Source: an uncultured Actinomycetota bacterium (GTDB lineage: Bacteria; Actinomycetota; Thermoleophilia; Solirubrobacterales; Solirubrobacteraceae). Taken from it: 64,000 nucleotides of DNA. Shown one piece after another: positions 7,252 through 64,000 of the stretch. The stretch spans positions 542,050 to 606,049 of the forward strand of contig CAVWWN010000023.1 of the NCBI GenBank assembly GCA_963758705.1. The letters are read 5' to 3'. Position 1 is the stretch's first letter; each line of letters begins with the position of its first letter. The position numbers and the translations under genes were made by a program. The notes under the pieces were generated by a model. That model was not told where the DNA came from and did no database searches. It saw nothing but the letters and a program-made list of their open reading frames with translations.

Positions 7252-8018
7252 CGAGCCGGCTCGATCTGTTTGCCGCCCAGCTTCCAGCCCACCCTGAACC
7301 TCGCCAGGAGCGCCGAGGCGAACAGGACCGACGCGAACGCGGTGCCGAACACCAGGAGCGCGATCTCCTTGCTCACGCCACCGTTGATGACCCCGCCGTA
7401 GGCGCTGCCCAGTTGGGTGAGGTCGACATGGGCCGCCGGATTGAGCCCCCGGTTGTTGTCCAGCGACGCGAGGTAGAGCTTCAGGCCCTTGACCGAGTCG
7501 TTGGCCAGGTCCACGGCAGCCGGGCCGCTCGGGGCCTGGGCGTAGATGTGGAGCACCGGCACGGTCGGATCGACCTGGAGCTGCAGCTTGTAATGATCGG
7601 CGGAGGCGAGGATGTCGGTCGCACTCGCCCCGCTGCCAGGCTCGGTGAGCGTCTGCGGCACGTTGGCCGTGACCGGCGACGTGGCCTGGATCCGTGACGA
7701 CGCGATGCCCATCAACTTGGCGATCTCGGCCTTGACGGGATCGGTGGCCATGAGGTTGCCGATCAGGGCCGCGCGCGCCTGTAGCGAGCCGAAGTCATCC
7801 GTACTGGCGTGGAGGTTGAGGATGTCCGACTGGGCCGTGTCGACCAGTAGCGTCGTCGACGCAGCGCCGATCTCCCAGTCACGCGAGTGCGCGCTCGGCG
7901 GGAGCAGCGACACCTGGTACACGCTGAGCACCGCCGCGGCAAGGCCGATGACCAGGGCCGCGACAAACCGTCCCCGCAACCTGAGCCGGGGCCGTGACTT
8001 GATGGAAAACCGCGCCAT
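7248..8018 (-). CDS. Bitopic membrane protein, possible polysaccharide co-polymerase/chain-length-determinant-like (paralog 1 of 3)
   Basis: 256 aa with an N-terminal TM (FVAALVIGLAAAVLSVY), an extracytoplasmic domain and a C-terminal TM (IALLVFGTAFASVLFASALLA). It shares the pattern LLPP...LLVDT...A..IAKLMGI with 8031..9128 and 11573..12289. Confidence 0.55.
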   Translation of the reverse strand: MARFSIKSRPRLRLRGRFVAALVIGLAAAVLSVYQVSLLPPSAHSRDWEIGAASTTLLVDTAQSDILNLHASTDDFGSLQARAALIGNLMATDPVKAEIAKLMGIASSRIQATSPVTANVPQTLTEPGSGASATDILASADHYKLQLQVDPTVPVLHIYAQAPSGPAAVDLANDSVKGLKLYLASLDNNRGLNPAAHVDLTQLGSAYGGVINGGVSKEIALLVFGTAFASVLFASALLARFRVGWKLGGKQIEPAR

Positions 8019-8030
8019 CTCAGTCGGGGG

Positions 8031-9128
8031 TCAGCGCCGCCCGAGCAGCCCGTTGAGCGCCCGCTTGCGCCCGTCACGCTCGGCCGTGACGTGGACCGTG
8101 GTGTCCACGACGGTCGGCGTCGGGTGGTACCGCGGGCCTTCGGCACTTCCGACCATCGCCGGCACGGCCTCACCCATGTGGGTCGGCTGATCGGGGACGA
8201 CCGCCTGCGGCGAGTCCGCGTCGTCGTCCGCGCCCTCGGCCGGGCTGTCAGTGATCGCGTGCAGCTGGAGGTCCCGCCGGCCCGAGGCCATAGCCGCGCC
8301 CGGGGTCAGCGCGAACACCGCGCGCAGGTCGTCGGCGTCGTCCTCGGCGACGCCGGGCTTGTCGTCGTGCACTTGGATCCGGCCGGCCGCCGCTTCGGCC
8401 TCCTCGTCGGACGCGCGCAGGCGGGTGCGGAGCCCGTCGACGAACAGGATCAGGTAGCAGCTGAGGCCGAGCAGGACGATCCCGGCGGCCGCGCCCAGGG
8501 CGCGGGAGGGCCCCGCTGTCGAGGTACCCGACTGACCTCCGAGCGCCTGGATCACAGGCTGGCGCGACGCGGGGATGTTCTGCGTTGCCGCAACCGTTTT
8601 GAGGTAGTTCTGGAGCGCACGCACGGCTCCGTCGGCCAGCTCGTTTGCCGCCGTCTCATTCGGGGCCTGAGCGGCGATCGACACCAGCGGCAGCGTCGAG
8701 TCGACACCGATCGTCAGGGTCGCCTGCTTCGCGGGCGGCACCGTCGCCGTCGCCAGAGGTGTCTGCACCGGCGCGGCTCCGGCGACCGCCGGCGGAATGA
8801 CGGAAAGGTTGTCGATCGGGATATTGGCCTCACGCGCGATCGCGACGCGGATCGGCTCGCTGGAGAACAGGTCGGCCAGAAGCTGGGCGTGGATGGAGAG
8901 CGAAGCGGCGCCCGACGGGTTGAGGTCAGCGACGATCGAGTCGGGGGTATCGACGAGAACGCGGTCGTTGGCAACACCGACGACGTAGCGCTTGCTCTGG
9001 AGTTGCGGCGGGAACCCCGGCTTGACGTGGTAGGTGAGGTTCACGGCCACCACTGCGGACAGCAGGACAGCGACGGCGAGGGCGATACGGTGGCGTCGCA
9101 GACGCCGCAGAGCGATGATCAGTTGCAT
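8031..9128 (-). CDS. Bitopic membrane protein, PCP/Wzz-like (paralog 2 of 3) with an acidic C-terminal tail
   Basis: 365 aa with the same N-TM/loop/C-TM layout: IALAVAVLLSAVVAVNL ... VLVDTPDS ... IAREANIPIDNLSV ... GIVLLGLSCYLILFV. An extra tail of about 120 aa rich in Asp/Ala follows. Confidence 0.55.
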   Translation of the reverse strand: MQLIIALRRLRRHRIALAVAVLLSAVVAVNLTYHVKPGFPPQLQSKRYVVGVANDRVLVDTPDSIVADLNPSGAASLSIHAQLLADLFSSEPIRVAIAREANIPIDNLSVIPPAVAGAAPVQTPLATATVPPAKQATLTIGVDSTLPLVSIAAQAPNETAANELADGAVRALQNYLKTVAATQNIPASRQPVIQALGGQSGTSTAGPSRALGAAAGIVLLGLSCYLILFVDGLRTRLRASDEEAEAAAGRIQVHDDKPGVAEDDADDLRAVFALTPGAAMASGRRDLQLHAITDSPAEGADDDADSPQAVVPDQPTHMGEAVPAMVGSAEGPRYHPTPTVVDTTVHVTAERDGRKRALNGLLGRR

Positions 9129-9219
9129 AGATGTGCGAGCGGAGGGTGGGGTACGGTCCGTCTCACTGAGAGCAACGCCCCGAAAGCCGCCGGGCTTTCG
9201 CAGCAGCTCGTGAGAGGTC

Positions 9220-10275
9220 TCAGAGGCCGGAGGTCATCGTCCGCAGCCGGCGCAGGTGATAAAGCGCGCGATGGGCGGCGCCGGTGACCACGAACGGCGG
9301 GAACCACATCGATCGTCGGGCCCCGATCGCCCTACGCAGACGAAAGCCATGCCATTCACGCAGGCGCGTCACGCTAGGACACACCTCGAACGCAAACTGC
9401 ACCAGCTCATCGACCGGAAGGGCGTTGGGACCCTCGGTGAGACCGCGGTCAACCGCGCGGCTCGCAGCCCACAGGGCTTGGCGGGCGAGCGCACGACCGA
9501 CCATTGCACGCAGCTCGTCGCGGTCTCGCAGGTCCCCGGGATCCGCGGCGAAGAGCGACGCGAACGCCTTGTAGCGCTCGCGCAGGTCGAGCATGGGGTC
9601 GCGGTCTGAGCGGAGCATGCTGTCGCTGTGCACGCGGTAGTAGGCCTGAGGGACGCCCTTGATGAAGGCGACGTCCGAAATCGCCGCGATCCGCAGCCAC
9701 ATGTTCAGGTCGCTGGTGTGAACACAGTCGGGGTCGTAGTGGCCGGCGGCGAGATGTACAGACGTCCGCACCACCACCTCGGGCGACGAGATGCAGTTGT
9801 GGGCCGACTCGCAACGGGTGCGCACCCAGCGCTCCCCGCTCCACACTTCCGTGCGGCGCCACCGGCCGCGGGGCGGAGGCGGCGGCCCCTCCCCTCGCAG
9901 GTAATGCGCCGGCCCGTAGACGAGACCGACGTTGGGGCGCTCCTCCATCACCTTGATGGCGCGTGCCAGCGAGCCCGGGACCAGGAAGTCGTCGGCGGAG
10001 AGCACCACGACGTAGTCGCTGTCCTGGGCCCACTCGAGCCCATGATTGATAGTGCCGATCAACCCTCGGTTCTGCCCATGGCGGCGGTACTCGATCCGGC
10101 TGTCGCCGTCCATGAGCCGCGCCGCAACCTCCGGCGTGTCGTCCGGTGAGCAGTCGTCGATGATCAGCACGCGCACCTGCACGCCGGGCTGATCCAGGGC
10201 GCTGGCGAGGCATCCTCCGAGCCACTTTGCGTAGTCGTAGCAGGGGACGATGACCTTGACGAGAGGCTCGCTCAT
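9220..10275 (-). CDS. Family-2 glycosyltransferase
   Basis: 351 aa. Motifs: VKVIVPCYDYAKWLGGCLASALDQ, LIIDDCSPDDT, VVVLSADDF (DxD). Confidence 0.85.
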   Translation of the reverse strand: MSEPLVKVIVPCYDYAKWLGGCLASALDQPGVQVRVLIIDDCSPDDTPEVAARLMDGDSRIEYRRHGQNRGLIGTINHGLEWAQDSDYVVVLSADDFLVPGSLARAIKVMEERPNVGLVYGPAHYLRGEGPPPPPRGRWRRTEVWSGERWVRTRCESAHNCISSPEVVVRTSVHLAAGHYDPDCVHTSDLNMWLRIAAISDVAFIKGVPQAYYRVHSDSMLRSDRDPMLDLRERYKAFASLFAADPGDLRDRDELRAMVGRALARQALWAASRAVDRGLTEGPNALPVDELVQFAFEVCPSVTRLREWHGFRLRRAIGARRSMWFPPFVVTGAAHRALYHLRRLRTMTSGL

Positions 10276-11576
10276 GCCGCCAGCGCACCCGCGCTACGCG
10301 CCAGCACCACGTTGCGCACGGCCTGCTCGAATTGGCGTCCCGCCTGCTCCCAGGTCGTCGACCGCACGCTCTCAGCGGCTGCGATGGCGCCGCGATTGCG
10401 CTCGTCGGCTGGACGGTCCACCAGTTTGCGCAGCGTGTCGGCCAGGTGAAACGGCGTCGCCGGGCTGTAGGCGATGTGCGAATTGTCGAGGACGAGGCGG
10501 TTGTGCTCGGCGTCGTTGACCACCGGGACGCAGCCCGCGCCGAGCATCTCGTGCGGGACCAACGACGAGTTGGTCGCCGACAGGCACAGCCCCGCGATAC
10601 ACCGGTTGTAGAGCGTGTTGAGCTCCGTGGCGTTGAGCAGGCCGTGATCGGTGACCCGGAACGAGGGCTTGCCCGCCGGCCGGCCGAAGAGGTGGATCTC
10701 GACGTCGGGGCACATCTCGGAGAACAGGTCCAGCGCCATCATCGCCAGCTCGTAGGCACGGCGCGGCGTGCCGGGGCGGCAGTAGTAGCAGATGCCGCTG
10801 CGACCGCTGCCCACGTCGTCGGGCCGCTGCAGCCGATAGTGATCCAGGTCGCAGCCGAAGTCGAAGTAGTCGGTGCTCATCCCGTACTCCCGGTGCAGCT
10901 TGCGCGCCAGCCACTTGCCCGCCGTCACGCCGTGGAACCCGAAGCTGTACGTGGCCTCGGCGAGCAGAGACTCGCTGCCGGCGGCGTAGAAGAGCGGCTC
11001 GAAGTCCTGAACGAAGTAGCACCGAGCCCCGGCGGCCGGCGAGGCCAGCGCGGGATAGGCCGTCTCCCAACTGGTGGCGAACACCGCATGGGCGTCCTCG
11101 ATGCCGTCGCGCAGGCTGCGCACCTGCGCGTTGATGTGAGGCCACCCGCTGCGGACGGTGGCGACGTGCTGCTCCATCGACCATCCGTGACGGTCGTACA
11201 GGTACATGACGCAGTTGTGCCCAGCCTTTTCCAGCGCGTCGACCATCCGGAACATCGTCTGGTGGCCCCCGACGCCGGGGTGCGGGGGGACAGCGATCCA
11301 GGCAACGGTCATCGGCTCAGAGGCGGTGTACGGGGCGGGACCAGGCAGCACCCAGCCGCCGGCTGCGATCTCGGCAGCGCGCACGAGGTCCTCGCGCGAG
11401 ACGGCGACCTGGCCGTAGCCCGAGGGCGTCAGCGTCACCGCGGCGCGGCTCAGCAGCCGCGCGGCCACGCCGGAGGCACCCTCGGAGCGCATCAGCCGCG
11501 CGGTCTGACGCAGCCTCTGCGCCGCCGATGCCTCCACCCCACCGCTGTTGGGACGATTGCGCTTCAAGGATCTCAC
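10272..11576 (-). CDS. Glycosyltransferase, WsaF-like/GT-B
   Basis: 434 aa. The YFVQDFEPLFYAAGSE block and the C-terminal GT-B half (LSATNSSLVPHEMLGAGCVPVVND) resemble WsaF-type rhamnosyltransferases as I remember them. GTGA overlap with the upstream gene. Confidence 0.65.
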   Translation of the reverse strand: MRSLKRNRPNSGGVEASAAQRLRQTARLMRSEGASGVAARLLSRAAVTLTPSGYGQVAVSREDLVRAAEIAAGGWVLPGPAPYTASEPMTVAWIAVPPHPGVGGHQTMFRMVDALEKAGHNCVMYLYDRHGWSMEQHVATVRSGWPHINAQVRSLRDGIEDAHAVFATSWETAYPALASPAAGARCYFVQDFEPLFYAAGSESLLAEATYSFGFHGVTAGKWLARKLHREYGMSTDYFDFGCDLDHYRLQRPDDVGSGRSGICYYCRPGTPRRAYELAMMALDLFSEMCPDVEIHLFGRPAGKPSFRVTDHGLLNATELNTLYNRCIAGLCLSATNSSLVPHEMLGAGCVPVVNDAEHNRLVLDNSHIAYSPATPFHLADTLRKLVDRPADERNRGAIAAAESVRSTTWEQAGRQFEQAVRNVVLARSAGALAA

Positions 11577-30305: not shown

Positions 30306-33976
<3,671 letters not shown>

Positions 33977-48628: not shown

Positions 48629-48973
48629 CTACCGCGGGTCGAGCACGAAGACGCTGATGTCCCGCGCGGTGCGGGTGCGGTAGTCGTCAAAGCCCGCATA
48701 CTGCTCGTTCATCCGCCGCCACAGGTCCGCGCGCTCCTCCCCCTCGGCCACACGCGCGCTCACCCGGCGCCGGTCCGCACCCACCTCCACCTCGGCGTCG
48801 GGATGGGCCTTGAGGTTGAGCGCCCACGCCGGGGCGCGCTCGTTCCCGGCGTTGGAACCGATGATGACGATGCGCTCGCCGTCGGCGAGGTAGACGACGG
48901 GCGCGGGACGGGTCGCAAGTCCGGCGCGCGACGCACACCGGTGAGATGTGGCTGTGCGCCGGCCCGCCCGCAC
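48629..48973 (-). CDS. Deazaflavin (F420)-dependent nitroreductase-family (DUF385-like) protein, C-terminal about 100 aa; the N-terminus continues upstream in other frames (frameshifted)
   Basis: GLATRPAPVVYLADGERIVIIGSNAGNERAPAWALNLKAHPDAEVEVGADRRRVSARVAEGEERADLWRRMNEQYAGFDDYRTRTARDISVFVLDPR. Upstream, HLTGVRRA sits in a different frame, so there is at least 1 break near 48925-48945. The true start was not resolved (somewhere up to about 49208). Confidence 0.5.
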   Translation of the reverse strand: MRAGRRTATSHRCASRAGLATRPAPVVYLADGERIVIIGSNAGNERAPAWALNLKAHPDAEVEVGADRRRVSARVAEGEERADLWRRMNEQYAGFDDYRTRTARDISVFVLDPR

Positions 48974-49365
48974 GGGCCGGCAGCCAGCCTCAGGTGAGCG
49001 CCGGGGTGCCGCTCGTCGTGTCGGCAGCCTGCGTGCCGGTCATACGCCGCCCCCGCGACGTAACACCGCTCGGGTCCACAACCCTGTCCTCGCGAACGAG
49101 CAGCGGCCGCCCGTCATCGGCGCGCTTGGAGAGCACCCAGCGGCGATGTATGACCTCCGTCTCCGGCATGGCTCCGGGCAACGATCGGTCCACGTCGTCA
49201 AGACTCATCCGTGAACCTCACATCATGGGTTTGGGGGTCTCGCGGGCCAGCTTTGAGGGCGCCCGCGACCCAGGCAAGGTAATGGGTGGCAGGCCGAAAG
49301 CCATGATTGTGGTGAATCTGTACACGGTCCCCTCGAAGACCTGCAACAAATCACACAAGCTCCGG

Positions 49366-53700: not shown

Positions 53701-54186
53701 ATGCCCCGGATCGCCACCATCGGCGTGTATGAGTTCGACGCGACGAGCTTCGTCGCCGCCCTCGACGAGGCCGGCGTCACCAAGGTCTTCGACATCCGCC
53801 AGCGCCGCGGCGTGCGCGGCTCCCAATACGCGTGGGCCAACGCCCAGCGCCTCCAGAGGCTGTTGAGCGAGGCCCGGATCGGCTACGAGTACCACCCAGA
53901 GCTCGCCCCGGACACCGAGTTGCGCCACCTCCAGTACCGCGATGACGACCGCCAGGGCGTCGGCAAGCGCTCCCGCGTCAGGCTCGCTCCCGACTACATC
54001 CGCGAGTACACCGAGGAGATCCTCGACCTCGTCCCGCTCGAGCCGCTCGTCCGGCAGCTACCGGTTCACGGCGTGGGTGCCCTGCTGTGCGTCGAGGCCA
54101 CGGCTCAGGCCTGCCACCGCTCGCTGGTCGCCGCTCGCCTGGCCGAGCGCTTCGGGTACGACGTCACCCACATCGAGCCCCGCTGA
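53701..54186 (+). CDS. DUF488-family protein
   Basis: 161 aa, intact: IATIGVYEFDATSFVAALDEAGVTKVFDIRQRRGVRGSQYAWAN...LLCVEATAQACHRSLVAARL. Confidence 0.7.
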   Translation: MPRIATIGVYEFDATSFVAALDEAGVTKVFDIRQRRGVRGSQYAWANAQRLQRLLSEARIGYEYHPELAPDTELRHLQYRDDDRQGVGKRSRVRLAPDYIREYTEEILDLVPLEPLVRQLPVHGVGALLCVEATAQACHRSLVAARLAERFGYDVTHIEPR

Positions 54187-54236
54187 CACCGCCGGCTACG
54201 CGACCCGCAAATGGACCGCCGGTAAGATCAGTTTCG

Positions 54237-55643
54237 ATGACCGTCGAGTGGGCCGGTCTGGGACCGGAGCTGCTGGTGCGCCTCGATCGCGAGGGCGACG
54301 AGCCACTCACCGCGCAGCTCGAGGGCGCGCTGCGCGACGCCATCCGCACCGGGCGCCTCGGATCCGACGAGCGGCTCCCGTCCTCCCGGGCGCTGGCCCG
54401 GGAGCTGGGCGTCTCCCGTGGGCTCGTCCAGGAGTGCTACGCGCAGCTGCACGCCGAGGGCTTCCTCACCACCCGCACCGGATCGGGCACGCGGGTGTCG
54501 GCCGGAGCCCAGCAGGCGCCCGCGCCGGTGACGGTCGCTCGGGCGCCGGTCCGTGGCCCGGCGATCGACTTCCGCCCCGGCCAGCCCGACCTCGCGAGCT
54601 TCCCGCGCCAGGACTGGATGTGGGCGATGCGCGAGGTGAGCCGCACGGCGCCGGCCGACGCGCTCGGGTACGGCGACCCGCGCGGTGACCGCGTGCTGCG
54701 CGCGGTGCTCGCGGGCTATCTGCGCCGCGTCCGCGGGGCGGTCACCGACCCCGATCGGATCATCGTCTGCGCCGGCTTCGCGCAGGGGAGCAACCTCGTG
54801 CTGTGGACGCTGGCGCGCCGGGGGGCCCGGCGGGTGGCGTTCGAGGATCCCGGGGATATCGACCCGGCGCAAAGCCGCCGCCTCTGGGGGCTCGACGGCG
54901 TCCCGGTCAGGGTCGACGAGCACGGCGTCGACGTGAGCGCGCTCGCCCAGACCGGCGCCGGTGCCGTCGTGCTGACGCCGGCCCACCAGTCGCCGACCGG
55001 CGTCGTCCTGGCGCCGGACCGGCGCCAGGCGCTCGCGCGCTGGGCCCAGGCCGAGCAGGCCACCATCCTCGAGGACGACTATGACGCCGAGTTCCGCTAC
55101 GACCGCGAGCCCGTGGGAGCCCTCCAGGGGCTCGCCCCCGCGCACGTGGCATTGCTCGGCACCGTCTCCAAATCGCTGGCCCCGGCCATTCGCCTGGGGT
55201 GGATCGTGTGCCCGCCGGCCCTGGTCGAGGACATCGCCGAGGCCAAGGAGCTCGACGACCGCGGATCGCCGGGGCTGGACCAGCTGGCGCTCGCCACGCT
55301 CATCCGCTCGGGTCGCTACGACCGTCATCTACGCGCGATGCGCGCCCGCTACGCGGGCAAACGCGCGGCGCTCATCGACGCGCTGGCCACCCATGCGCCG
55401 GAGGTCGAGCTGCGGGGCCTGGCCGCCGGCTTTCACGCCGTCGCCCGCCTGCCCGAGGGCAGCGACGAGCACGCCATCGCCGACGCCGCCCGCCTGCGCG
55501 GAGTGGGCCTGTACCCGATGAGCGACCTGCGCTGGAGCAGCGAGGCGCGTCCGCCGGAGCTGGTCATCGGCTTTGGCGACCTGAGCGAGCAGGCGATCCG
55601 GCGTGGCATCGAGACCGTGGCCGACCTGTTGCGCGGCGCCTGA
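54237..55643 (+). CDS. MocR/PdxR-type regulator (GntR wHTH fused to a PLP aminotransferase-like domain)
   Basis: Start at internal M51 of the track ORF. The wHTH reads LTAQLEGALRDAIRTGRLGSDERLPSSRALARELGVSRGLVQECYAQLHAEGFL. An AAT-fold domain follows, with TVSKSLAPAIRLGW supplying the PLP-binding Lys. Confidence 0.85.
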   Translation: MTVEWAGLGPELLVRLDREGDEPLTAQLEGALRDAIRTGRLGSDERLPSSRALARELGVSRGLVQECYAQLHAEGFLTTRTGSGTRVSAGAQQAPAPVTVARAPVRGPAIDFRPGQPDLASFPRQDWMWAMREVSRTAPADALGYGDPRGDRVLRAVLAGYLRRVRGAVTDPDRIIVCAGFAQGSNLVLWTLARRGARRVAFEDPGDIDPAQSRRLWGLDGVPVRVDEHGVDVSALAQTGAGAVVLTPAHQSPTGVVLAPDRRQALARWAQAEQATILEDDYDAEFRYDREPVGALQGLAPAHVALLGTVSKSLAPAIRLGWIVCPPALVEDIAEAKELDDRGSPGLDQLALATLIRSGRYDRHLRAMRARYAGKRAALIDALATHAPEVELRGLAAGFHAVARLPEGSDEHAIADAARLRGVGLYPMSDLRWSSEARPPELVIGFGDLSEQAIRRGIETVADLLRGA

Positions 55644-55753
55644 GCCGGGGCGGGCCGCGCACGTCCCGCCCGGGGGGCCGCGCAAAGTGGACCACTCACC
55701 AAGCCTCGAAATGGACCTTATCGCCGGTCCGATTCGGGCGTACGTTGCTGCCC

Positions 55754-56977
55754 ATGACCACGCAACGTACCTCTCGCCTCCTCGCCGGCCCCGACGGTCG
55801 GGCGCTCCTGGCCAGCTCCATCCTGGCCCGACTGCCGTTGGCGATGCTGAGCATCGCGATCCTCGTCCACGTTCACCGGCTGACGGCGTCCTTCGCCGTC
55901 GCTGGGCTCGCCTGCAGCGCCTACGCGATCTGCAGCGCGCTCGCCTCGCCGGTGCTCGGGCGGCTGGTCGATCGCCGCGGGCAGACCCGGGTGCTGCTCG
56001 TCGGCGCGACGCTGAGCGCGCTGGCGCTCATCGTCACCGGCCTCATGCCGGCCGACAGCCCACCCGTGCTGCTGATCGCCCTGGCCGGGGGCGCCGGACT
56101 GGCCACGCCCCCGCTGGAGGCGTGCGTGCGGACGCTGCTGCCGGCGATCGTCTCCGGGCCGTCCGAGCTCCCGGCGCTGTTCGCGCTCGAGTCCACGCTG
56201 CTGGAGGTGACGTTCGTGCTCGGCCCCCCGTTGGCCCTCGGGCTCGGTGCGGTCTGGTCCACGGGCGGCGCCCTGATCGTATGCGGGGTGATCATGATCG
56301 CCGGCACCATCGCCTTCGCGACCCGCCGTGTGTCCCGGACGTGGCGCCCGGACGCCGCCGCGCCCCGTTCCCGCGCGGGGTCGCTGCGCGTCGCCGCAAT
56401 CCGCGTCCTGGTGATGGCGGATCTGGGCACCGGCGTGGTGTTCGGGGCCACCGAGGTCGGAGTCACCGCCAGCGCAACGCACATCGCCGGCGCCACCGCG
56501 GCCGCTCCGCTGCTGGGCCTGTGGGGCGCCGGATCGTTGGTCGGCGGGTTCGTCGTCACACGCCTGGGCACGCGGTTTGAAAGCGCGCGGCACCTCCCGG
56601 CCCTGCTCGGAGCGCTCGCCGTCACGCACGGGGCACTGCTGGCCGGCACCGGCAGCCTGCCGCTGATGGGGGCGATCCTCCTGCTCGCCGGCGCGACCAT
56701 CGCCCCGACAACAGCCGGCATCTACGCCATGGTCGATCGCTTCGCTCCCGCCGGCACCCATACCGAGGCCTTCTCCTGGCTCTTCACCTCGTCCTCAGCG
56801 GGCGCCGCCGCCGGCGCGGGCATCGCGGGTGTGCTGGCCCAGGGCGTGGGCCCCGGCGCGGTGTTCGCCTTCGCCGGGGTGACCGGCGGCCTGGCCACGC
56901 TGGTCACGATCCTGGGCGCGCACCACCTGAGGCCGCAGTCCCCGGTCGCCGTCTCCGGAGCGTCCGCCGTCGTCTGA
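55754..56977 (+). CDS. MFS transporter
   Basis: Start at the internal ATG (MTTQRTSRLLAGPDGRALLASSILARLPLAML...). About 12 TM spans. A GRLVDRRGQTR motif-A-like loop lies between TM2 and TM3. Confidence 0.8.
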   Translation: MTTQRTSRLLAGPDGRALLASSILARLPLAMLSIAILVHVHRLTASFAVAGLACSAYAICSALASPVLGRLVDRRGQTRVLLVGATLSALALIVTGLMPADSPPVLLIALAGGAGLATPPLEACVRTLLPAIVSGPSELPALFALESTLLEVTFVLGPPLALGLGAVWSTGGALIVCGVIMIAGTIAFATRRVSRTWRPDAAAPRSRAGSLRVAAIRVLVMADLGTGVVFGATEVGVTASATHIAGATAAAPLLGLWGAGSLVGGFVVTRLGTRFESARHLPALLGALAVTHGALLAGTGSLPLMGAILLLAGATIAPTTAGIYAMVDRFAPAGTHTEAFSWLFTSSSAGAAAGAGIAGVLAQGVGPGAVFAFAGVTGGLATLVTILGAHHLRPQSPVAVSGASAVV

Positions 56978-57091: not shown

Positions 57092-57604
57092 TCAGCCGAC
57101 GAGAAGCTCCACCCCGGCGGCAACTATGAGCCCGCCGCCGGCGAGCCCGAGGCTCAGCACGCGACTGCGCTGGAGCGCCGGGACCGTGCGCGCAACCGCT
57201 GCGGCGATGGCGAGCCCGGCGCCGGCCAGCAGTGCGCTGGACAGCGCCTGCTCTCCGGCCTGCCCCCACACGTTCGTTGTCCAACTGTGGTCGATGACGC
57301 CGAAGGTGATGTTATCGATGCTCAGCGCCACCGGCAGGACCCACACCCAGCGGGTGCCGGCGGTCTGGCGCGACATCATGGCCAGAGCGATCCAGTACAG
57401 GCCGAGCGCGACAAAAACCCCGGTCGCGGCGACGGTGGAGACGCCGCCAGGCATGCTCCAGTGCAACGCCGTGCCGAGCAGGAATCCCCCGGCATCGGCG
57501 ATGCCGAAGGAGACGGCAAACGGCACGCGCGCCCTGGGGCTGATCACCGTACCAACCGCCAAACAGGCGATGAAGCTGTCGATTCCGAGTAGCAGAAAGC
57601 CCAT
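57092..57604 (-). CDS. MntP-like (DUF204 x2) putative manganese efflux membrane protein
   Basis: 170 aa with two repeats, each carrying S-x-D motifs (LGIDSFIACLAVG and ALSIDNITFGV). Confidence 0.55.
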   Translation of the reverse strand: MGFLLLGIDSFIACLAVGTVISPRARVPFAVSFGIADAGGFLLGTALHWSMPGGVSTVAATGVFVALGLYWIALAMMSRQTAGTRWVWVLPVALSIDNITFGVIDHSWTTNVWGQAGEQALSSALLAGAGLAIAAAVARTVPALQRSRVLSLGLAGGGLIVAAGVELLVG

Positions 57605-57777: not shown

Positions 57778-59478
57778 CTACTCCGGCAGCGCGAACGCGA
57801 ACAGCGCGGCGCCACCCGCCTGCGCGAGCGCGCCGGGGTAGAACCCTTCGGTCCAGGCGCCGTATCCAACCGGCACGGCGATGTACTGCCGCCCATCGAC
57901 GCTGTAGGTGCTCGGGCTCGAGTGATGGCCGCTGCCGCACGTGAACTCCCAGAGGAGCTCACCGCTGGTGTCGTTGAACGCCCAGTACTTGCCCGCGGGG
58001 CCACCAGCGAGCACGAGGCCGCCGGCGGTGGCCAGCACCGACGCGGTCATCGGGTGCTCCTGGGTGAAGCGCCACTTCTCCTGGCCCGTGGCCGGGTCGA
58101 ACGCCGAGACGTAGCCGGACACATCCTCTGTGTCCACCGCGACGCCCGCGCCCCAGTACGGGATGCTCTCCTTGAACTCCCGCCGCCGCCGTGTGGCGGT
58201 CGCACCCACATCCTGCACCGGGCAGTAGAAGAGCCCCGTCTTCTGGCTGTACGCGGCGTGGGTCCATTCCTTGGCGCCAGCCGGGCCGGGCCAGAAGTGG
58301 ACCGGCTCCCCCTCCTTCTCGGGGTACAGCCTCGGCGTCACCTTGCCGTTGGAGTCGATCTCGCCCCAGGTGATGCGGTCGACGAACGGCACGACCCGGA
58401 TCAGGCTGCAGTCAGTGCGATCCAGGATAAAGAAGTACCCGTTCTTGTCGAAGTGTCCGGAGCACTTGCGTCCGTCCATCTCGAACAGGATGTTCTCCAT
58501 CGTCGAGTCGTAGTCCCACAAGTCGTGTGGGGTGTACTGATAGTGCGACTTGATCTTGCCGGTGTCGGGATCCACCGCCACCACGGAGTCCGTGTAGAGG
58601 TTGTCGCCCTCACGCACCTCCCCGTCGAAATCGGGACATGGGTTGCCCGTATTGAAGTACAGGAGGTTGAGTTCCGGGTCGTAGGTCGGCGTGATCCAGC
58701 AGTTCGCGCCGCCGCGCGCCCAGGCCTCGCCGTCCGAGGGCCAGGTCTCGGACCCCGGCTCCCCGGGAGCGGGGACCATGTAGCACCGCCACACGCGCTC
58801 TCCGGTCTCGAGTTTGAACGCGTCGGCGTGGCCGCGCACCCCGAACTCTCCACCCGAGCTTCCGACGATGACCATGTCCTTGACGATGAGCGGGGCGACG
58901 GTCGCGCTCTCGCCGGCCCGTACGTCCCCGAACGGCTGATCCCAGACGAGCGCACCGGTCTTGGCGTCAAGCGCGGTCACGTGGGCATTGAGGGTGGCCA
59001 TGAAGACCTTCCCGTCAGCCACGGCGCAGCCCCGGTTGACGTTGCCGCAGCACAGCGACACGTCGTACGGGGACGCACGGTGATAGCGCCACAGCTCCGC
59101 TCCGGTCTTGGCGTCAAGCGCCCACATCCAGCCATCCCAGCCGGTCACGTACATGACGCCGTCGACGACGAGCGGAGACGCCTCGAACGAATAGGTCGAG
59201 GCACCCGAGTGCATTCCCACCGAGCCGCACTGGAACACCCACGCGGGCCTCAGATCCTTGACGTTCGAGGTATTGATCTGGTCGAGCAGGCTGTAGCGCT
59301 GCCCGTCGTAGGCCCCGTAGTAGCTGAGCCAGTTGTGGGGCTCCGCTTCGCGGGCCTTGAGGATTCGGTCGTAGTTGACGCCTTTCGCGACGTCCGGCGC
59401 AGCGCCGACGTAGCCGGGGCTCAGATTCCGGAAGTCGACAGCCTCACCTGCGTCGACGTAATCAGTCTCAGTTGCCAT
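57778..59478 (-). CDS. PQQ-dependent dehydrogenase, methanol/ethanol family (XoxF-like, DYD lanthanide signature), with no recognisable signal peptide
   Basis: Start at the internal ATG at 59478, with AAAGGAG 7 nt upstream. The vicinal Cys pair sits in VSLCCGNVNRG. TPHDLWDYDS is present. An eight-blade propeller pattern with W-docking motifs is visible. The N-terminus MATETDYVDAGEAVDFRNLSPGYVG has no hydrophobic h-region. Confidence 0.9.
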   Translation of the reverse strand: MATETDYVDAGEAVDFRNLSPGYVGAAPDVAKGVNYDRILKAREAEPHNWLSYYGAYDGQRYSLLDQINTSNVKDLRPAWVFQCGSVGMHSGASTYSFEASPLVVDGVMYVTGWDGWMWALDAKTGAELWRYHRASPYDVSLCCGNVNRGCAVADGKVFMATLNAHVTALDAKTGALVWDQPFGDVRAGESATVAPLIVKDMVIVGSSGGEFGVRGHADAFKLETGERVWRCYMVPAPGEPGSETWPSDGEAWARGGANCWITPTYDPELNLLYFNTGNPCPDFDGEVREGDNLYTDSVVAVDPDTGKIKSHYQYTPHDLWDYDSTMENILFEMDGRKCSGHFDKNGYFFILDRTDCSLIRVVPFVDRITWGEIDSNGKVTPRLYPEKEGEPVHFWPGPAGAKEWTHAAYSQKTGLFYCPVQDVGATATRRRREFKESIPYWGAGVAVDTEDVSGYVSAFDPATGQEKWRFTQEHPMTASVLATAGGLVLAGGPAGKYWAFNDTSGELLWEFTCGSGHHSSPSTYSVDGRQYIAVPVGYGAWTEGFYPGALAQAGGAALFAFALPE

Positions 59479-59491
59479 CAACTGCTCCTTT

Positions 59492-59944
59492 CTACGGCCG
59501 CGGCTGGGGCGGGCGGTCGAGCTTGGCTTCGTCCGGGACTTCACCACTGACGACGATCGTGCCGGTCAGGCCCCGACCCTCGTCGTTGCCGGTCCGGGAG
59601 CCATACCAGTAGTAGCCCGGGCCGTCGAGCGAGAGGGTCGCCCTCCCCTTCGAGAAGTTCACCAGCCAGATGAACTTGGAATCGCCGTTGCTCGGCAGCA
59701 CCGCGCAGTGCGAGTTGTTGTCGTCGTTGATGATCTCGAGTTCCAGTTCGCCCGCATGAGGGAGGACCAGGACGCCGGGGTCGAAAACCAGCTCGTCCAA
59801 CGGGATTCGGACAGTGGCGTGCATCTTGCCGTCGGATCCCTCCTCGGCCATCCCGACGTTTCCGCGGCCGAGCACTCGTCCGAGTGTCACGCCGTTCTGT
59901 TTTGCCAGCCCCTGAATCACGCTCTCGTCGACTGTGGCGGTCAC
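59492..59944 (-). CDS. Small beta-sandwich (cupredoxin-like?) protein co-transcribed upstream of the PQQ dehydrogenase (PQQ-associated family)
   Basis: 150 aa with a GTG start after GGAGGGAGAG; the stop lies 13 nt before the dehydrogenase ATG. ...LVLPHAGELELEIINDDNNSHCAVLPSNGDSKFIWLVNFSKGRATLSLDGPGYYWYGSRTGNDEGRGLTGTIVVSG. It resembles what I recall as the MSMEG_3727-type PQQ-associated protein; this is unverified. Confidence 0.5.
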   Translation of the reverse strand: MTATVDESVIQGLAKQNGVTLGRVLGRGNVGMAEEGSDGKMHATVRIPLDELVFDPGVLVLPHAGELELEIINDDNNSHCAVLPSNGDSKFIWLVNFSKGRATLSLDGPGYYWYGSRTGNDEGRGLTGTIVVSGEVPDEAKLDRPPQPRP

Positions 59945-60139: not shown

Positions 60140-61210
60140 TCACCCGAGAGTGATCGTAGCGGCGTCAGTGACCCGCAGATGCTCGAGGGCGGTCCCGCTG
60201 GACTCGCGGACCCTCAGCGTCTCGGCCAGGCCGGCGTGGCGGCCGCCCGCCAGCCCATCGGCGAGGAGCGCGCCCCCGTGCGCGGCCGAGCTAGCGCGGC
60301 CGGGCACGAGCGACACCACCGGAGCAACGTCAGCCAACGAACCGGCCAGGCGGGTGACGAGCGCGGGTAGGCGGGCCAACCGGCCCGAGACAACGATCTC
60401 ACGCGGGGCCGGCACGCTGACGAGCATTGCGCGCACCGCCTTGGCGGCGGCCTCCAGCAGCGCCGTCCAGCCCTCGGCGAGGTCCGCCGAGTTCCACAAC
60501 GCGCTCAGGTCGGTCATGTCAAGGGTCCCCCCCGGGTCCAGGGCCCCGCCGCTGTACAGCGTGTCCTTGCCCAGCACAGGGGCGAGCAGGTAGGCGACCT
60601 CGCCGTCCAGTGCGCCCACGGCACGCGCGCCGAGAGGTCCCGACGATCCGCCCATGCCGTCGACGATCTGTCCCTCGTCGATCGCGAGCGCGGCGGTGAA
60701 CGCGCCTCCGAGCTCGATTAGGACCATCGAGCTCTGACGAGGGGAGATCCCCAGTCGCGACGATTGATCGGCGATCGCGTAGGCCGCGGCACACACCTTG
60801 TCCGCGGTCCCCATGTCGATCCGGTTGTACTTCCGGTGAGGCGGCACCGAGGGCAGGTGGATGACGCCGGGACCGAAGACGACGGGCAGTCCGCTGCCGA
60901 TGAGGGCCCGCAGCAGCGAGCGCAGCCCGCGGACGCCGGCGTCGGCATGGGCCTCGTCGGGGCGCACCAGCACCATCTCGGCCAGCTCGCGCTCCCCGGT
61001 GTCGGCTGCGGCCACGAGCGGCAGCCCATAGCCACTCGGACCGTAGACGAGGTCATAGGGGCCGTGGACGGTGAGCGCCTCCAGCAGCGGCCGGCTGTCT
61101 GCGCTGAGCGTTCCGGCGTGGAACACCTGCTCGACGACCGGTTCGCCGTCCTCGAGCACGCACAGGTCGAATGAGACCGTACCGGGGTCGACGCCAGCTA
61201 CCCGGGGCAT
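60140..61210 (-). CDS. ASKHA-fold (acetate/sugar kinase/Hsp70/actin-like) protein, DUF1464-like
   Basis: 356 aa. N-terminal VAGVDPGTVSFDLCVL is a phosphate-1 DxGxT motif. IDMGTADK and LIELGGAFTA look like phosphate-2/adenosine-type motifs. Confidence 0.55.
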   Translation of the reverse strand: MPRVAGVDPGTVSFDLCVLEDGEPVVEQVFHAGTLSADSRPLLEALTVHGPYDLVYGPSGYGLPLVAAADTGERELAEMVLVRPDEAHADAGVRGLRSLLRALIGSGLPVVFGPGVIHLPSVPPHRKYNRIDMGTADKVCAAAYAIADQSSRLGISPRQSSMVLIELGGAFTAALAIDEGQIVDGMGGSSGPLGARAVGALDGEVAYLLAPVLGKDTLYSGGALDPGGTLDMTDLSALWNSADLAEGWTALLEAAAKAVRAMLVSVPAPREIVVSGRLARLPALVTRLAGSLADVAPVVSLVPGRASSAAHGGALLADGLAGGRHAGLAETLRVRESSGTALEHLRVTDAATITLG

Positions 61211-61221
61211 ATCATTGGACC

Positions 61222-61599
61222 ATGAGCAAAGAGCGGACCTACACCGAGGCTGAGATCCCCGCCAAGCTGTCGGAGCTCGGCCTGGATGAGTGGTATTACG
61301 AGGGTGACTGGATCCGGCGCAAGTACAACACCGACGGCTGGCCCACCACCCTGATGGCCGTCAACGCCGTCGGCTACCTGTGCGAGGCCGCCGGCCATCA
61401 CGCCGACCTCAACGTCACCTGGGGCAAGCTCTGGGTCAAGCTGGCCACGCACTCGGCCGGCGGGATCACCGACAAGGACTTCACCCTGGCTCGCAAGATC
61501 GAGGACACCGTGCTGTGGCGGCCGGATGCCGACGGCCCGCTGGACGGACCGATGGGCAAGTTCGTGTTCTCGAAGTCGCGCCTGGGCGCCGGGGCCTGA
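61222..61599 (+). CDS. Pterin-4a-carbinolamine dehydratase (PCD/DCoH family)
   Basis: Start at internal M18. WIRRKYNTDGWPTTLMAVNAVGYLCEAAGHHADLNVTWGKLWVKLATHSAGGITDKDFTLARKIE carries the HH(P/A)D signature and the TH-x-x-GG-(L/I)-T block. Confidence 0.8.
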   Translation: MSKERTYTEAEIPAKLSELGLDEWYYEGDWIRRKYNTDGWPTTLMAVNAVGYLCEAAGHHADLNVTWGKLWVKLATHSAGGITDKDFTLARKIEDTVLWRPDADGPLDGPMGKFVFSKSRLGAGA

Positions 61600-61606
61600 C
61601 CAGGAC

Positions 61607-62467
61607 TCACAGGGTCTCCAGGGCGACGTCGTAGACGCCGCCGAGGTCGAGCACCGTCCCCTTGGCCTCGAACATCCGCTGCACGCAGCGTTTTTGCAGC
61701 TTCATCTTCGGACCGCCCACCGCCAGCGCGCCGAGCTTGAGCACACCGTCCTCCTCGGTGAGGTCATCGCCCCGGTCGACGGCCTCGACGCCCACCGGCT
61801 CGGCCGCCGAGTAGTCGATCACCACCCGCACGTCGCTCTGCGCCCAGCCGTCGTGCCGGAGGATCTGGATGCCGGCCGGCCCGGCGGCGAAGATCGCCAC
61901 GTGCCCGGCCAATGCCGCATCGAGAGCGTCGCTGGACGCGGGCTCGGTCACGTCGAAACCCGCCTCCTGCGCGACCGCGATACCCGAGGCCCGGCGATGG
62001 CGGCCCTTCATCACGTCGGGCGGGAACGTCAGGACGGTCACCTCGGCGCCCTCACGCCGCAGGAGCTCGGCGGTACGCAGTCCGACCGGCCCCACCCCAA
62101 TGACCGCGGTACGGCTGCCCTCGAGCGTCACCGCGCCGCGGACACGGGCCACGGCGGCAGCCGCGGTCGTATTCGAGCCGTCGGAGTCGAGCATGATCGA
62201 CGGTGTGAACGGCTCGAAGAACAGCTCCTGGGCCGCAGCGAACACCGCCTCGCCGTCGCGCACCTTCGACCCGCCGATCCAGAACGCGGTGTTGGCCAGC
62301 CCATCAGGACCGCGCGGGAAGATCGCGCCCTGGACGACGCCGGCCAGGTTCTCGGCGGTGATCTGCCCGTAGCCGAGGACGACGTCCACACCGGCGTCGT
62401 ACGCCGCGATCGCGTCAAACGCGCTCGGATGCTGGTCGGTGTCGAGCTGAAGCAGGATCTTCTTCAT
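61607..62467 (-). CDS. NAD(P)-dependent methylene-tetrahydromethanopterin dehydrogenase (MtdA/MtdB family)
   Basis: 286 aa. MKKILLQLDTDQHPSAFDAIAAYDAGVD...IMLDSDGSNTTAAAAVA...IGVGPVGLRTAELL...GGPKMKLQKRCVQRMFE is collinear with Methylobacterium extorquens MtdA as I remember it (LLFQFDTD...PSVFD, MLDSNGSNTTAAA, GGLKLKLH). Confidence 0.85.
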   Translation of the reverse strand: MKKILLQLDTDQHPSAFDAIAAYDAGVDVVLGYGQITAENLAGVVQGAIFPRGPDGLANTAFWIGGSKVRDGEAVFAAAQELFFEPFTPSIMLDSDGSNTTAAAAVARVRGAVTLEGSRTAVIGVGPVGLRTAELLRREGAEVTVLTFPPDVMKGRHRRASGIAVAQEAGFDVTEPASSDALDAALAGHVAIFAAGPAGIQILRHDGWAQSDVRVVIDYSAAEPVGVEAVDRGDDLTEEDGVLKLGALAVGGPKMKLQKRCVQRMFEAKGTVLDLGGVYDVALETL

Positions 62468-63807
62468 CGGATGTCCTCCCGTCGAGGTTCGGGAAAGCTG
62501 AGCAGGCCCCAGTCCAGCGGGCCCTCCTGGCGGTAGCTCTTATGCAGGCCGCGGGCGATCGTGGCCTTCATCAGCTCCTTGCCGAGGTAGAAGGCGTGCG
62601 CGGGGTCGCTCACCCCGAGCTGCTCGAACACCGCGTACATGTTGGCCTCGCGGATGAACCGCTCGCCGTTGAACGCGTAGAGCCAATCGGCATCGGCGAA
62701 CAGGCGGTAGTTGGCGTCGGCGATCTGCGCCTGCATTGCCCGTAGCTCATCCTCCGAGGGCGCATGCATCGACTCGTCCCTGGTCGTGACCAGGCCGGAG
62801 TCGATGTGCTTGGGGGGCCGCGCCTCGCGCTGGGCCACGTGCATGATCTGCGCCGCCAGGACCGTCTCGCGGACCGCCCCGCGGGCCCACCCGATCACCT
62901 CGGTGGTCAGGACCGCGGTGATGCCCACCTCCTGGCAGAAGCCGATCAGCACCGCCGTGACCCCGGTCGAATCGGCCTCCGTCAGCTCCGTGAGGTTGCC
63001 GATGCCCATCAGCATGCCGGCGTCGGGATGGCGGCGACGGACCTCGACGTAGCGGGCCAGCGACGCGGCGAAGCCCGAGTTGATGGGAGCCAAGATGGAG
63101 TCGAGCAGATAGGGCCGGTCCAGTTGGTCCATGCGGGCGGCCATCCGGTCCAGGCTGTCGAGGTCCTCGGGATCGTCGGTGATCAGGACCGGGGTCGCGC
63201 GCAGGTCGGCGACCATGTCGATCGTCCGCGGGGTGAGGCTGAGCACGTAGTCCACGCCGGCCGCATCCGCCATTCGGATGTGCTCGGGGTCAAGGGTGTC
63301 GATACTCACCGCCAGCCCACGCTCGCGCAGCGCCGCAATCGTCCGCGGCCCCTCGGCCAGCCACGAGCGATCGAGCGAGAGACCGAGGTCGATCACGTCG
63401 GCCCCCTCCGCGCGATAGGCCTCGGCCCGGTCGATCACCTGTTCATGCGAGAGCGTCTGGACGTCGTTGATCTCGGCGAACACGCGCACATCTCGGGGTC
63501 CGAGCTCGGCCCGCACCGCCGCCCGGCCGTACCACTCCGGCAGCGAGCGGACGTCCGCCGGGCCCTTGCGCACCGGCAAGCCGGTGGCCTGCTCCAGCGT
63601 GTCCACATCGCCTTCACACAGGCCCGGGATCACGATGTTGTCGACTCCCGATGGCACCTCCAGCCGCCGCGCGATCCAGCGCGTCGTCATCAGCGCGGCG
63701 ACGCTGATGTTCATCACGGCGATCTCGTGGCCGATATCCAGCGTGGAGACGACGCTGCGAAGGGCCGGCTCGGCCAGACGACCGGTGACGAACAGGGTGT
63801 CAGCCAA
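62464..63807 (-). CDS. Dihydropteroate-synthase-like pterin-binding protein (N-terminal extra domain + Pterin_bind), methanopterin-biosynthesis type
   Basis: Start trimmed to the TTG at 63807, overlapping the stop of the upstream SDR. ...AEGADVIDLGLS...LAVSIDTLDPEHI...VDYVLSL...YLLDSILAPINSGF...GMLMGIGNLTELTEADSTGV...VLTTE matches a DHPS TIM-barrel pattern. ATGA coupling to the mtd gene. Confidence 0.7.
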   Translation of the reverse strand: MADTLFVTGRLAEPALRSVVSTLDIGHEIAVMNISVAALMTTRWIARRLEVPSGVDNIVIPGLCEGDVDTLEQATGLPVRKGPADVRSLPEWYGRAAVRAELGPRDVRVFAEINDVQTLSHEQVIDRAEAYRAEGADVIDLGLSLDRSWLAEGPRTIAALRERGLAVSIDTLDPEHIRMADAAGVDYVLSLTPRTIDMVADLRATPVLITDDPEDLDSLDRMAARMDQLDRPYLLDSILAPINSGFAASLARYVEVRRRHPDAGMLMGIGNLTELTEADSTGVTAVLIGFCQEVGITAVLTTEVIGWARGAVRETVLAAQIMHVAQREARPPKHIDSGLVTTRDESMHAPSEDELRAMQAQIADANYRLFADADWLYAFNGERFIREANMYAVFEQLGVSDPAHAFYLGKELMKATIARGLHKSYRQEGPLDWGLLSFPEPRREDIR

Positions 63808-64000
63808 CGGTGCCGCCGTTGACGTTAACCGCCTGACCCGTGACGAAGGCGGCGGCCGGCGACGCCAGCCACACCGCCGCACCCGCGACGTCCTCCGGCC
63901 GGCCCCAACGCCCCAGCGGCGTGCCCGCGGCGACCCCGTCGTAGAAGGCGCGGTCCACGCCTGCGCCGAATGCCGTCTCGATCCAACCGGGACACAGGAC
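63800..64000 (-). CDS. SDR-family oxidoreductase, C-terminal part only (the gene continues beyond the right edge)
   Basis: My translation of the minus strand gives VLCPGWIETAFGAGVDRAFYDGVAAGTPLGRWGRPEDVAGAAVWLASPAAAFVTGQAVNVNGGTVG*, a typical classical-SDR C-terminus. Confidence 0.6.
   Translation of the reverse strand, partial: VLCPGWIETAFGAGVDRAFYDGVAAGTPLGRWGRPEDVAGAAVWLASPAAAFVTGQAVNVNGGTVG

Follow-up and report, generated by a model that had tools for sequence, protein, structure and literature searches.

A periplasmic location is the accepted view for pyrroloquinoline quinone (PQQ)-dependent alcohol dehydrogenases and for every lanthanide enzyme known so far. Among them are PedH from Pseudomonas putida KT2440 (6ZCV/6ZCW), a lanthanide-dependent PQQ ethanol dehydrogenase which carries a signal peptide, resides in the periplasm and passes its electrons to cytochrome c, the related ExaF, and the XoxF enzymes (clades 1-5; 4MAE, 6DAM, 6OC5, 7O6Z). 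Mutagenesis of XoxF1 and ExaF has established that an extra Asp in the active site is needed for lanthanide binding and activity (bioRxiv 10.1101/2020.02.25.964783). In a 2024 soil study the periplasmic location of XoxF was given as the reason why its absence from Gram-positive genomes is "not surprising[ly]" found (PMC10875860). MSMEG_3726, inside a pqq cassette, is the only PQQ alcohol dehydrogenase of Mycolicibacterium smegmatis (Haft 2011, PMC3023750). Here we examine a gene for a PQQ-dependent alcohol dehydrogenase of 566 residues in a 64,000-nucleotide stretch of DNA (hereafter the window) from an uncultured bacterium of the Solirubrobacteraceae, Actinomycetota (GCA_963758705.1, contig CAVWWN010000023.1, positions 542,050 to 606,049). 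With moderate confidence, we read it as a catalytically competent lanthanide-type enzyme of an Actinomycetota-specific clade, one that no longer carries an export signal and most likely resides in the cytoplasm.

Active site and family placement of the dehydrogenase

The protein scores 601.6 bits against TIGR03075, the model of the PQQ methanol/ethanol-family dehydrogenases (cutoff 480.05), over residues 33-541, and matches the Pfam PQQ family with E 8e-83. Its AlphaFold2 (AF2) model, with a predicted local distance difference test (pLDDT) score of 74 and a predicted template modelling score (pTM) of 0.82, has the eight-bladed beta-propeller fold and matches PedH, XoxF, ExaA and MxaF at template modelling (TM) scores of 0.78-0.83. 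The best Foldseek match was PedH (6zcv, TM 0.83, sequence identity 36%). Residue equivalences were read from HMMER alignments to PedH, ExaA, ADH-IIB and Ca-dependent enzymes. Cys143, Cys144, Glu211, Asn279 and Asp322 all have counterparts in ExaA and ADH-IIB as well as in PedH, and Asp324 falls on the second Asp of the PedH D-F-D motif. In this column, Thr is found in the Ca-dependent enzymes 1kv9 and 1kb0 and Ser in 1flg, within the patterns D-F-T, D-Y-T and D-F-S. Since the ligands and Asp324 line up with PedH, the lanthanide signature is present and correctly aligned, and the dehydrogenase is probably lanthanide-dependent. A preliminary description of the locus, made from the sequence of the window, had pointed to the Cys-pair motif SLCCGNVNRG and to TPHDLWDYDS, and had taken the second Asp of WDYD for the lanthanide-coordinating residue; both motifs were located (Table 1) and the assignment of the Asp agrees with the PedH alignment. 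The same description had drawn attention to the lanthanide (D-Y-D) signature, a point that needs some qualification: D-x-D was found in 118 of the 136 cluster representatives outside the clade that could be scored, and is thus not rare.

To define the clade, we scanned species-representative genomes, which gave 80 loci, all from Solirubrobacterales or unclassified Actinomycetota, and we searched plasmids by tblastn, which gave a 72%-identical signal-less copy on a 1.56-Mb linear Streptomyces plasmid. In the resulting set of 81 sequences, 222 of 566 positions are invariant, among them C143, C144, E211, N279, D322, Y323 and D324. The closest 120 database proteins are 74-96% identical to the window protein, nearly all have 561-566 residues, and those with a named source belong to Solirubrobacterales, Baekduia or Pseudonocardiaceae. 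Among 1.84 billion cluster representatives the clade stands isolated: the next full-length relative (P0242) is 59% identical and the rest are at or below 45%. The family model and the literature together suggest that MSMEG_3726 belongs to the clade as well. One genome bin (SMAG_U1425) holds two copies of the module discussed below, one with the Fae/tetrahydromethanopterin (H4MPT) series of genes and the other beside a thiamine-pyrophosphate enzyme and unrelated genes (L068, L069).

It could be argued that the enzyme is cytoplasmic and PQQ-dependent but works with another metal (Mg2+, Ca2+ or Mn2+), the Asp at +2 being inherited from a lanthanide-using ancestor. The frequency of D-x-D outside the clade makes it the majority, and probably the ancestral, state of the family; the conserved MntP-like neighbour belongs to a family named for manganese transport; and free lanthanide is undocumented in a monoderm cytoplasm. 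XoxF1 produced without lanthanum does bind Ca2+, but in that form it is nearly inactive, and the Asp is required in XoxF1 and in ExaF (bioRxiv 10.1101/2020.02.25.964783). Given also that Asp324 is invariant across 81 species, and that known Ca-dependent enzymes have Ala, Ser or Thr in its place, we consider the use of another metal rather unlikely.

A second possibility is that the protein is not a working dehydrogenase but a cofactor-free or regulatory relic, comparable to the "empty quinoproteins" or to XoxF in its sensing role. It matches TIGR04528 (acido-empty-quinoprotein, group A) with 400 bits, no pqq genes were found in the window, and the M. smegmatis cassette has no known phenotype. 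However, 400 bits is below the TIGR04528 cutoff of 650, so that the protein falls outside this group, whereas its TIGR03075 score exceeds the cutoff of that model. The metal and catalytic residues are all invariant and pqqABCDE are physically linked to the gene in relatives, which makes a relic very improbable.

The "XoxF-type" label of the preliminary description should, on the sequence evidence, be dropped in favour of a separate Actinomycetota clade. Compared with enzymes of solved structure, the protein scores highest with PedH (365 bits), followed by ADH-IIB (316), qhEDH (307), ExaA (297), XoxF (262-295) and MxaF (246). In a neighbour-joining tree with PedH, ExaA, ADH-IIB and one annotated XoxF5 as references, it groups with sequences from Solirubrobacter, Pseudonocardiaceae and Streptomyces; the sister of this clade is a Gemmatimonadota group, and the two together lie apart from PedH, ExaA, ADH-IIB and XoxF5 (distance to XoxF5 0.66). 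At L083, a genuine XoxF5 locus, the flanking genes encode cytochromes c. No xoxG (cytochrome cL) or xoxJ gene is found among the neighbours in the window, where genes for an MSMEG_3727-family protein, a DUF1464 protein, MtdB and an MntP-like protein stand instead. What the protein shares with XoxF is the TIGR03075 family, D-Y-D, the vicinal Cys pair and, as in methylotrophs, the linkage to formaldehyde/H4MPT genes; the lower similarity, the different neighbours and the lack of an export signal set it apart. With PedH it has in common the propeller, the Cys pair, the Glu/Asn/Asp ligands and the extra Asp (D-Y-D against D-F-D), but it differs in its clade, in having no signal and no cytochrome c neighbour, and in being accompanied by a cupredoxin-derived partner.

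The missing export signal and the partner protein

Whether an export signal is present was judged by Kyte-Doolittle hydropathy and by sequence comparison. The gene has the third-position G+C bias of real genes (the window has 70% G+C), and its best start is ATG 59478, as proposed in the preliminary description. This start lies 13 nt past the TAG stop (59492-59494) of the upstream gene, and the ribosome-binding site AAAGGAG, directly after that stop, is separated from the ATG by a spacer which we read as 6 nt. The only longer start is GTG 59547; the extension it would add (VVKSRTKPSSTARPSRGRRKEQL) is basic, as described before, and runs into the upstream gene. An in-frame stop 29 codons before the ATG ends the frame in this direction. 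From neither start is there a hydrophobic core within the first 60 residues, where the mean hydropathy of any segment of 8-19 residues is at most 1.04 (maxima of 1.04 over 8 residues and 0.28 over 19). This agrees with the preliminary description, which had recognised no export signal at either start and had called a signal-less PQQ dehydrogenase in an actinobacterium unusual. It is indeed unusual: 108 of the 123 non-clade representatives that have an N-terminal region show a strongly hydrophobic N-terminus (at least 2.0 over 10 residues), and the other 15 are mostly borderline signals or truncated gene calls. Three other family representatives with 35-42% identity to the window protein (P0276, P0326, P0370) also have no hydrophobic N-terminus, which may reflect wrongly called starts or point to additional lineages without a signal.

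The signal-less N-terminus is common to the 80 Solirubrobacterales loci, a Pseudonocardiaceae protein and the Streptomyces plasmid gene. MAT is the start in 65 of the 81 clade sequences, and the upstream in-frame extension to the nearest stop is free of hydrophobic stretches in all 81. The seven database relatives that we inspected all start with MAT..YVDAG.AV or MTDYVDAG and have no signal. The missing signal is therefore a fixed trait of the whole Actinomycetota clade, and the oddity is real and larger than the preliminary description had thought. The hidden upstream signal peptide for which that description had allowed was found neither in the window nor in the 80 loci; the in-frame stop, the overlap with the upstream gene and the lack of hydrophobic stretches rule it out. 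A type VII signal of the YxxxD/E kind was likewise rejected, since YVDAGE does not fit it.

An artefact, in the form of a wrong start codon or an assembly indel, would also make a signal disappear. The window is not free of errors, since rpoB is divided between two overlapping open reading frames (ORFs) in different frames (Table 1), with one frameshift, probably an assembly indel, between ~31924 and 32240. In the dehydrogenase gene, however, the in-frame stop and the strong ribosome-binding site right behind the stop of the upstream gene leave little room for such an error, and the same architecture recurs in 80 independent genomes and on the finished Streptomyces plasmid, with upstream in-frame extensions devoid of hydrophobic stretches. 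That an artefact accounts for the missing signal is hardly credible.

The nearest relatives outside Actinomycetota (59% identity) are Gemmatimonadota dehydrogenases, soil "XoxF-like" proteins paired with a PF23509 cupredoxin. Their genes follow the same order of partner, dehydrogenase and small membrane protein, and the dehydrogenases have the same D-x-D and CC motifs. They differ from the module of the window in that dehydrogenase and partner are both lipoproteins, the partner retains the His/Cys/His/Met copper ligands, the membrane protein is of the DUF2231 type instead of MntP-like, and a TonB-dependent receptor is adjacent. The dehydrogenases of P0242 and of the Gemmatimonadaceae loci L084 and L085 carry lipoprotein signals (LVAGC, TVAAC, ALGC). 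The N-terminus of the window protein (..VDFRNLSPGYVGAAPDVAKGVNYDRIL) is homologous to the mature N-terminus of these sister proteins (..FPFTALDASKVGVAPAVARNVTFDRIR), which indicates that the export signal was simply removed in the window clade relative to its sister. The TonB-dependent receptor genes beside the exported pair (L084:13616-15778, L085:7441-9762) possibly encode lanthanide uptake receptors, and L084 has two PF23509 cupredoxin genes in tandem.

The gene upstream of the dehydrogenase, found there at each of the 80 loci, encodes the partner, a PQQ-associated protein of the MSMEG_3727 family. It starts at GTG 59944, with GGAGGGAG about 9 nt upstream. The AF2 model (pLDDT 73.5) is a cupredoxin sandwich, for which Foldseek returned CupA, CuA domains, Cupredoxin_1 and auracyanin at probability 1.0, with target-normalised TM scores up to 0.75. 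A Gemmatimonadota homologue (L081) has the lipobox LLASC and a full blue-copper set, with His in EVLHIAF and Cys, His and Met in GCPVANHAGRGM. The His/Cys/His/Met type-1 set is absent from the window-clade partner, which has His79, Ser116, Asp121 and Leu126 in these columns in 82 of 82 sequences, and in which His63, Cys80 and Glu122 are newly invariant. We compared database samples of 120 sequences of each type. In the Gemmatimonadota type, a lipobox and hydrophobic N-terminus are found in 103 of 120 and the C..H..M loop in 117 of 120; in the window type, a signal is found in 0 of 120 and an S..D..L loop in 94 of 95 matched sequences. Hydrophobic stretches do occur in stop-to-start translations upstream of some partner genes; in the window such a stretch lies before the GTG start and ribosome-binding site of the partner, and we assumed the same at the other loci.

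By these comparisons, the partner appears to be descended from a periplasmic blue-copper cupredoxin serving the exported Gemmatimonadota sister enzymes. Cupredoxins such as azurin with ADH-IIB and amicyanin with methylamine dehydrogenase accept electrons from quinoproteins; this analogy holds for the Gemmatimonadota form and extends to the window partner, which has no copper site, by descent only. Both partner types have retained the dehydrogenase-associated C-terminal tail EVP.EAKLDRP..PRP (EVP.EAKLDRP.QPRP in the window), which points to a persisting contact with the dehydrogenase. Because the tail is kept, the ligands are exchanged and His63, Cys80 and Glu122 are gained, the partner is probably still a bound subunit, one whose metal site has changed or which acts as a chaperone. 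No other feature of the sequences argues as strongly for a move into the cytoplasm, where the dehydrogenase most likely works, as does the paired loss of both export signals and of the copper site; the argument presupposes that the copper of cupredoxins is taken up outside that compartment.

The enzyme might still be exported without an N-terminal signal, by a ride on a signal-bearing partner through the twin-arginine translocation (Tat) system or by another actinobacterial secretion system, and act on the outer face of the membrane. Such export would fit the extracytoplasmic location of all characterised relatives, the invariant Cys-Cys pair, which is typical of an oxidising compartment, and the presence of a conserved N-terminal motif, M-A-T-x-x-Y-V-D-A-G-x-A-V. 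Against it, the motif does not match the YxxxD/E type VII signal, and the N-terminus corresponds to the mature end of the exported sister enzyme minus its signal. Tat hitchhiking on the partner was rejected because all 120 database members of the partner type are without a signal; the partner is the sole universally linked protein, it has lost its copper ligands, and the operon contains no conserved signal-bearing protein. We therefore regard export by such a route as distinctly unlikely.

Gene neighbourhood and a possible cytoplasmic pathway

The partner, the MntP-like gene and the H4MPT genes, all missed in the preliminary description, hold most of the functional information of the locus (Table 1). 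Downstream of the dehydrogenase lies a gene for a polytopic membrane protein of 170 residues with no Pfam match at E up to 5. In BLASTP it shows a distant similarity (E 9e-6) to its positional counterpart in most relatives, and LxxDxF and LSxDN motifs occur in both; this counterpart matches Pfam Mntp (PF02659) with E 4e-20. One or the other type of membrane protein is found downstream of the dehydrogenase in ~70 of 80 loci, and an MntP-like gene also flanks the Streptomyces cassette (examples are L069:11785-12324 and L082:16999-17589). The MntP-like protein is a candidate for the supply, transport or homeostasis of a metal, perhaps a lanthanide. Upstream of the partner follows a series of H4MPT-linked genes. 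The protein encoded at 62464..63981 has, besides its DUF6513 match, weaker sub-threshold matches to Pterin_bind and DUF4346, and matches TIGR00284 with E 1e-47 (162.8 bits, below the cutoff of 256.65). A 98%-identical locus (L001) continues beyond the window edge with Fae (E 8e-70), a CitG-like protein and an ATP-grasp protein. The upstream series, comprising Fae, MtdB and the H4MPT genes, is kept in 70-73 of 80 loci.

Table 1. Position of the dehydrogenase module, its key residues and other features in the window
Feature	Position	Strand	Basis or content
PQQ-dependent alcohol dehydrogenase, 566 aa	57778..59478	-	Intact 566-codon ORF; TIGR03075 and Pfam PQQ matches
Ribosome-binding site AAAGGAG of the dehydrogenase gene	59485..59491	-	Direct read; 6-nt spacer to ATG 59478
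Motif SLCCGNVNRG, aa 141-150	59029-59058	-	Sequence read
Vicinal Cys143-Cys144 codons	59047..59052	-	Aligns with CC of PedH, ExaA, ADH-IIB; invariant in 81 clade members
Glu211 (GGEFG), metal ligand	58846..58848	-	Aligns with GGEFG of PedH; invariant in clade
Asn279 (TGNP), metal ligand	58642..58644	-	Aligns with TGNP of PedH; invariant in clade
Motif TPHDLWDYDS, aa 316-325	58504-58533	-	Sequence read
Asp322-Tyr323-Asp324, catalytic Asp and lanthanide-type Asp at +2	58507..58515	-	Aligns with D-F-D of PedH; invariant in clade
Partner, MSMEG_3727-family PQQ-associated protein, 150 aa, cupredoxin fold	59492..59944	-	TIGR04339, 247 bits (cutoff 75); PF23509, E 4e-73
Polytopic membrane protein, 170 aa, distant MntP-like candidate metal transporter	57092..57604	-	Similarity to positional counterpart
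DUF1464 protein, H4MPT-linked set	60140..61210	-	PF07318, E 3e-77; same position in 73/80 loci
Pterin-4a-carbinolamine dehydratase, divergent	61222..61599	+	94% identical to L001 protein matching PF01329, E 7e-23
Methylene-H4MPT dehydrogenase (MtdB-like)	61607..62467	-	Pfam Mpt_N, E 2e-25; in 73/80 loci
Dihydropteroate-synthase-like protein (H4MPT biosynthesis type)	62464..63981	-	DUF6513, E 7e-20
Short-chain dehydrogenase (SDR), C-terminal end, cut by window edge	63803..64000	-	tblastn, 91% identity to L001 SDR
MocR/PdxR-like regulator and major facilitator superfamily (MFS) transporter	53946-56977	opposite to module	Just downstream of module
F420H2-dependent quinone reductase family member	48629-49039	-	
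rpoB	30306-33867	-	Two overlapping ORFs, different frames
rpoB, first ORF	31924..33867	-	Rpb2 domains 1, 2, 3, 45
rpoB, second ORF	30306..32240	-	Rpb2 domains 6, 7
Exopolysaccharide/glycan cluster	1-23300		Polysacc_synt_3 flippase, asparagine synthase, several GT1/GT2/GT4 glycosyltransferases, UDP-glucose dehydrogenase

The preliminary description had noted that the window contains no pqqA-E genes, and a tblastn search of the 64 kb with PqqB, PqqC and PqqE of L080 was also negative. By Pfam, the rest of the window is made up of the exopolysaccharide cluster, nusG-rplKAJ-rpoBC, regulators and similar genes, with no pqq. In L077, L079, L080 and the Streptomyces plasmid, pqqB, pqqC and pqqE lie ~2 kb downstream of the dehydrogenase gene, and in L080 a PqqA-like peptide (MTWVKPKFEFVELCSEVTSYLHHR) could also be read. 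Because relatives carry pqqABCDE ~2 kb downstream, we take the absence to reflect the limits of the window only. The partner of the window, a clear TIGR04339 member, links it to the MSMEG_3721-3727 cassette of M. smegmatis, and the combination of partner, dehydrogenase and pqqABCDE recurs on the Streptomyces plasmid and in three loci of the order Solirubrobacterales; the window differs in that H4MPT genes, not pqq genes, are adjacent.

Some observations on the surroundings may be added. The cassette is unannotated in the record of the Streptomyces plasmid (NZ_CP109439, L082), which is almost without annotation. By eye, it is preceded there by a catalase-peroxidase-like gene (8813-11053) and a large regulator (7377-8771); the latter resembles genes beside the cassette in L069 and L080, the one in L080 having a LytTR domain. 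The pairing of regulator and MFS transporter downstream of the module is not conserved, the MFS gene being found at this position in few loci only. The F420H2-dependent quinone reductase family is typical of Actinomycetota and fits the taxonomic assignment.

If the enzyme is cytoplasmic, as we favour, the following sequence of events can be proposed. PQQ would be made in the cytoplasm by PqqABCDE and loaded into the enzyme there; the metal would be loaded in the same compartment and held by Glu211, Asn279, Asp322 and Asp324. The enzyme would then oxidise a small alcohol, in Solirubrobacterales most likely methanol, so that it is probably methanol-oxidising in this order. The aldehyde would be released directly beside the cytoplasmic Fae and H4MPT pathway, whose genes adjoin that of the dehydrogenase, and formaldehyde would therefore not need to cross the membrane. 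The partner would remain bound to the dehydrogenase as an altered redox or metal-handling subunit, while the MntP-like protein would manage the metal. It is tempting to go further, and to speculate about a fully cytoplasmic lanthanide/PQQ system in which the MntP-like protein imports or manages the lanthanide, the rebuilt hard-ligand (Ser/Asp/Glu/His) cupredoxin provides for metal hand-over or electron exit, and Solirubrobacterales are primary methanol oxidisers missed by xoxF/mxaF surveys. We hold this extended proposal to be possible but doubtful.

Several points weigh against a cytoplasmic, methanol-oxidising lanthanide enzyme. Every characterised member of the dehydrogenase family is extracytoplasmic, and the vicinal Cys pair, which forms a disulfide in the solved enzymes, is invariant here despite the reducing cytoplasm. 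To our knowledge, no cytoplasmic acceptor for the electrons of reduced PQQ (PQQH2) has been described, and the partner is without copper ligands; we also know of no description of lanthanide import into a monoderm cytoplasm. Within the window we found neither the pqq genes nor a known lanthanide-uptake gene. The signal was judged absent by hydropathy and comparison, and the AF2 models of dehydrogenase and partner reach only moderate confidence (pLDDT 73-74). Methanol was assigned from the gene neighbourhood only; in Streptomyces and M. smegmatis the module occurs without H4MPT genes. Finally, M. smegmatis grew on ethanol without a need for PQQ under the conditions tested (PMC6529628).

Implications for Actinomycetota and for methanol turnover in soil

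Curated family models already cover both proteins, and the M. smegmatis cassette is known from bioinformatic work. In the searchable literature we found no account of a signal-less or cytoplasmic PQQ alcohol dehydrogenase in Actinobacteria, none of methylotrophy genes in Solirubrobacterales or of their H4MPT link to the dehydrogenase, and no description of the lanthanide signature of the clade or of the degenerate copper site of the partner; an earlier mention of any of these is possible. The expectation for Gram-positive bacteria would no longer hold if a lanthanide-type enzyme without a signal is conserved throughout Actinomycetota. The export signal and the copper site of the partner have disappeared together with the signal of the dehydrogenase. 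Such an enzyme raises the questions of how electrons of PQQH2 reach the respiratory chain from the cytoplasm, and how a lanthanide is imported and inserted in a monoderm cell. The same module is found in Streptomyces and in M. smegmatis, a species amenable to genetic work, so that the predictions can be put to a direct test.

In soil probed with 13C-methanol, labelled Solirubrobacteraceae/Thermoleophilia genomes were read as those of cross-feeders, as no methanol dehydrogenase was recognised in them (PMC10994693). The operon offers another reading, as direct methanol oxidation by these bacteria would explain the label. Solirubrobacterales are among the most abundant soil bacteria, and the link to Fae and H4MPT genes in most of their loci suggests an overlooked methanol sink in soil.

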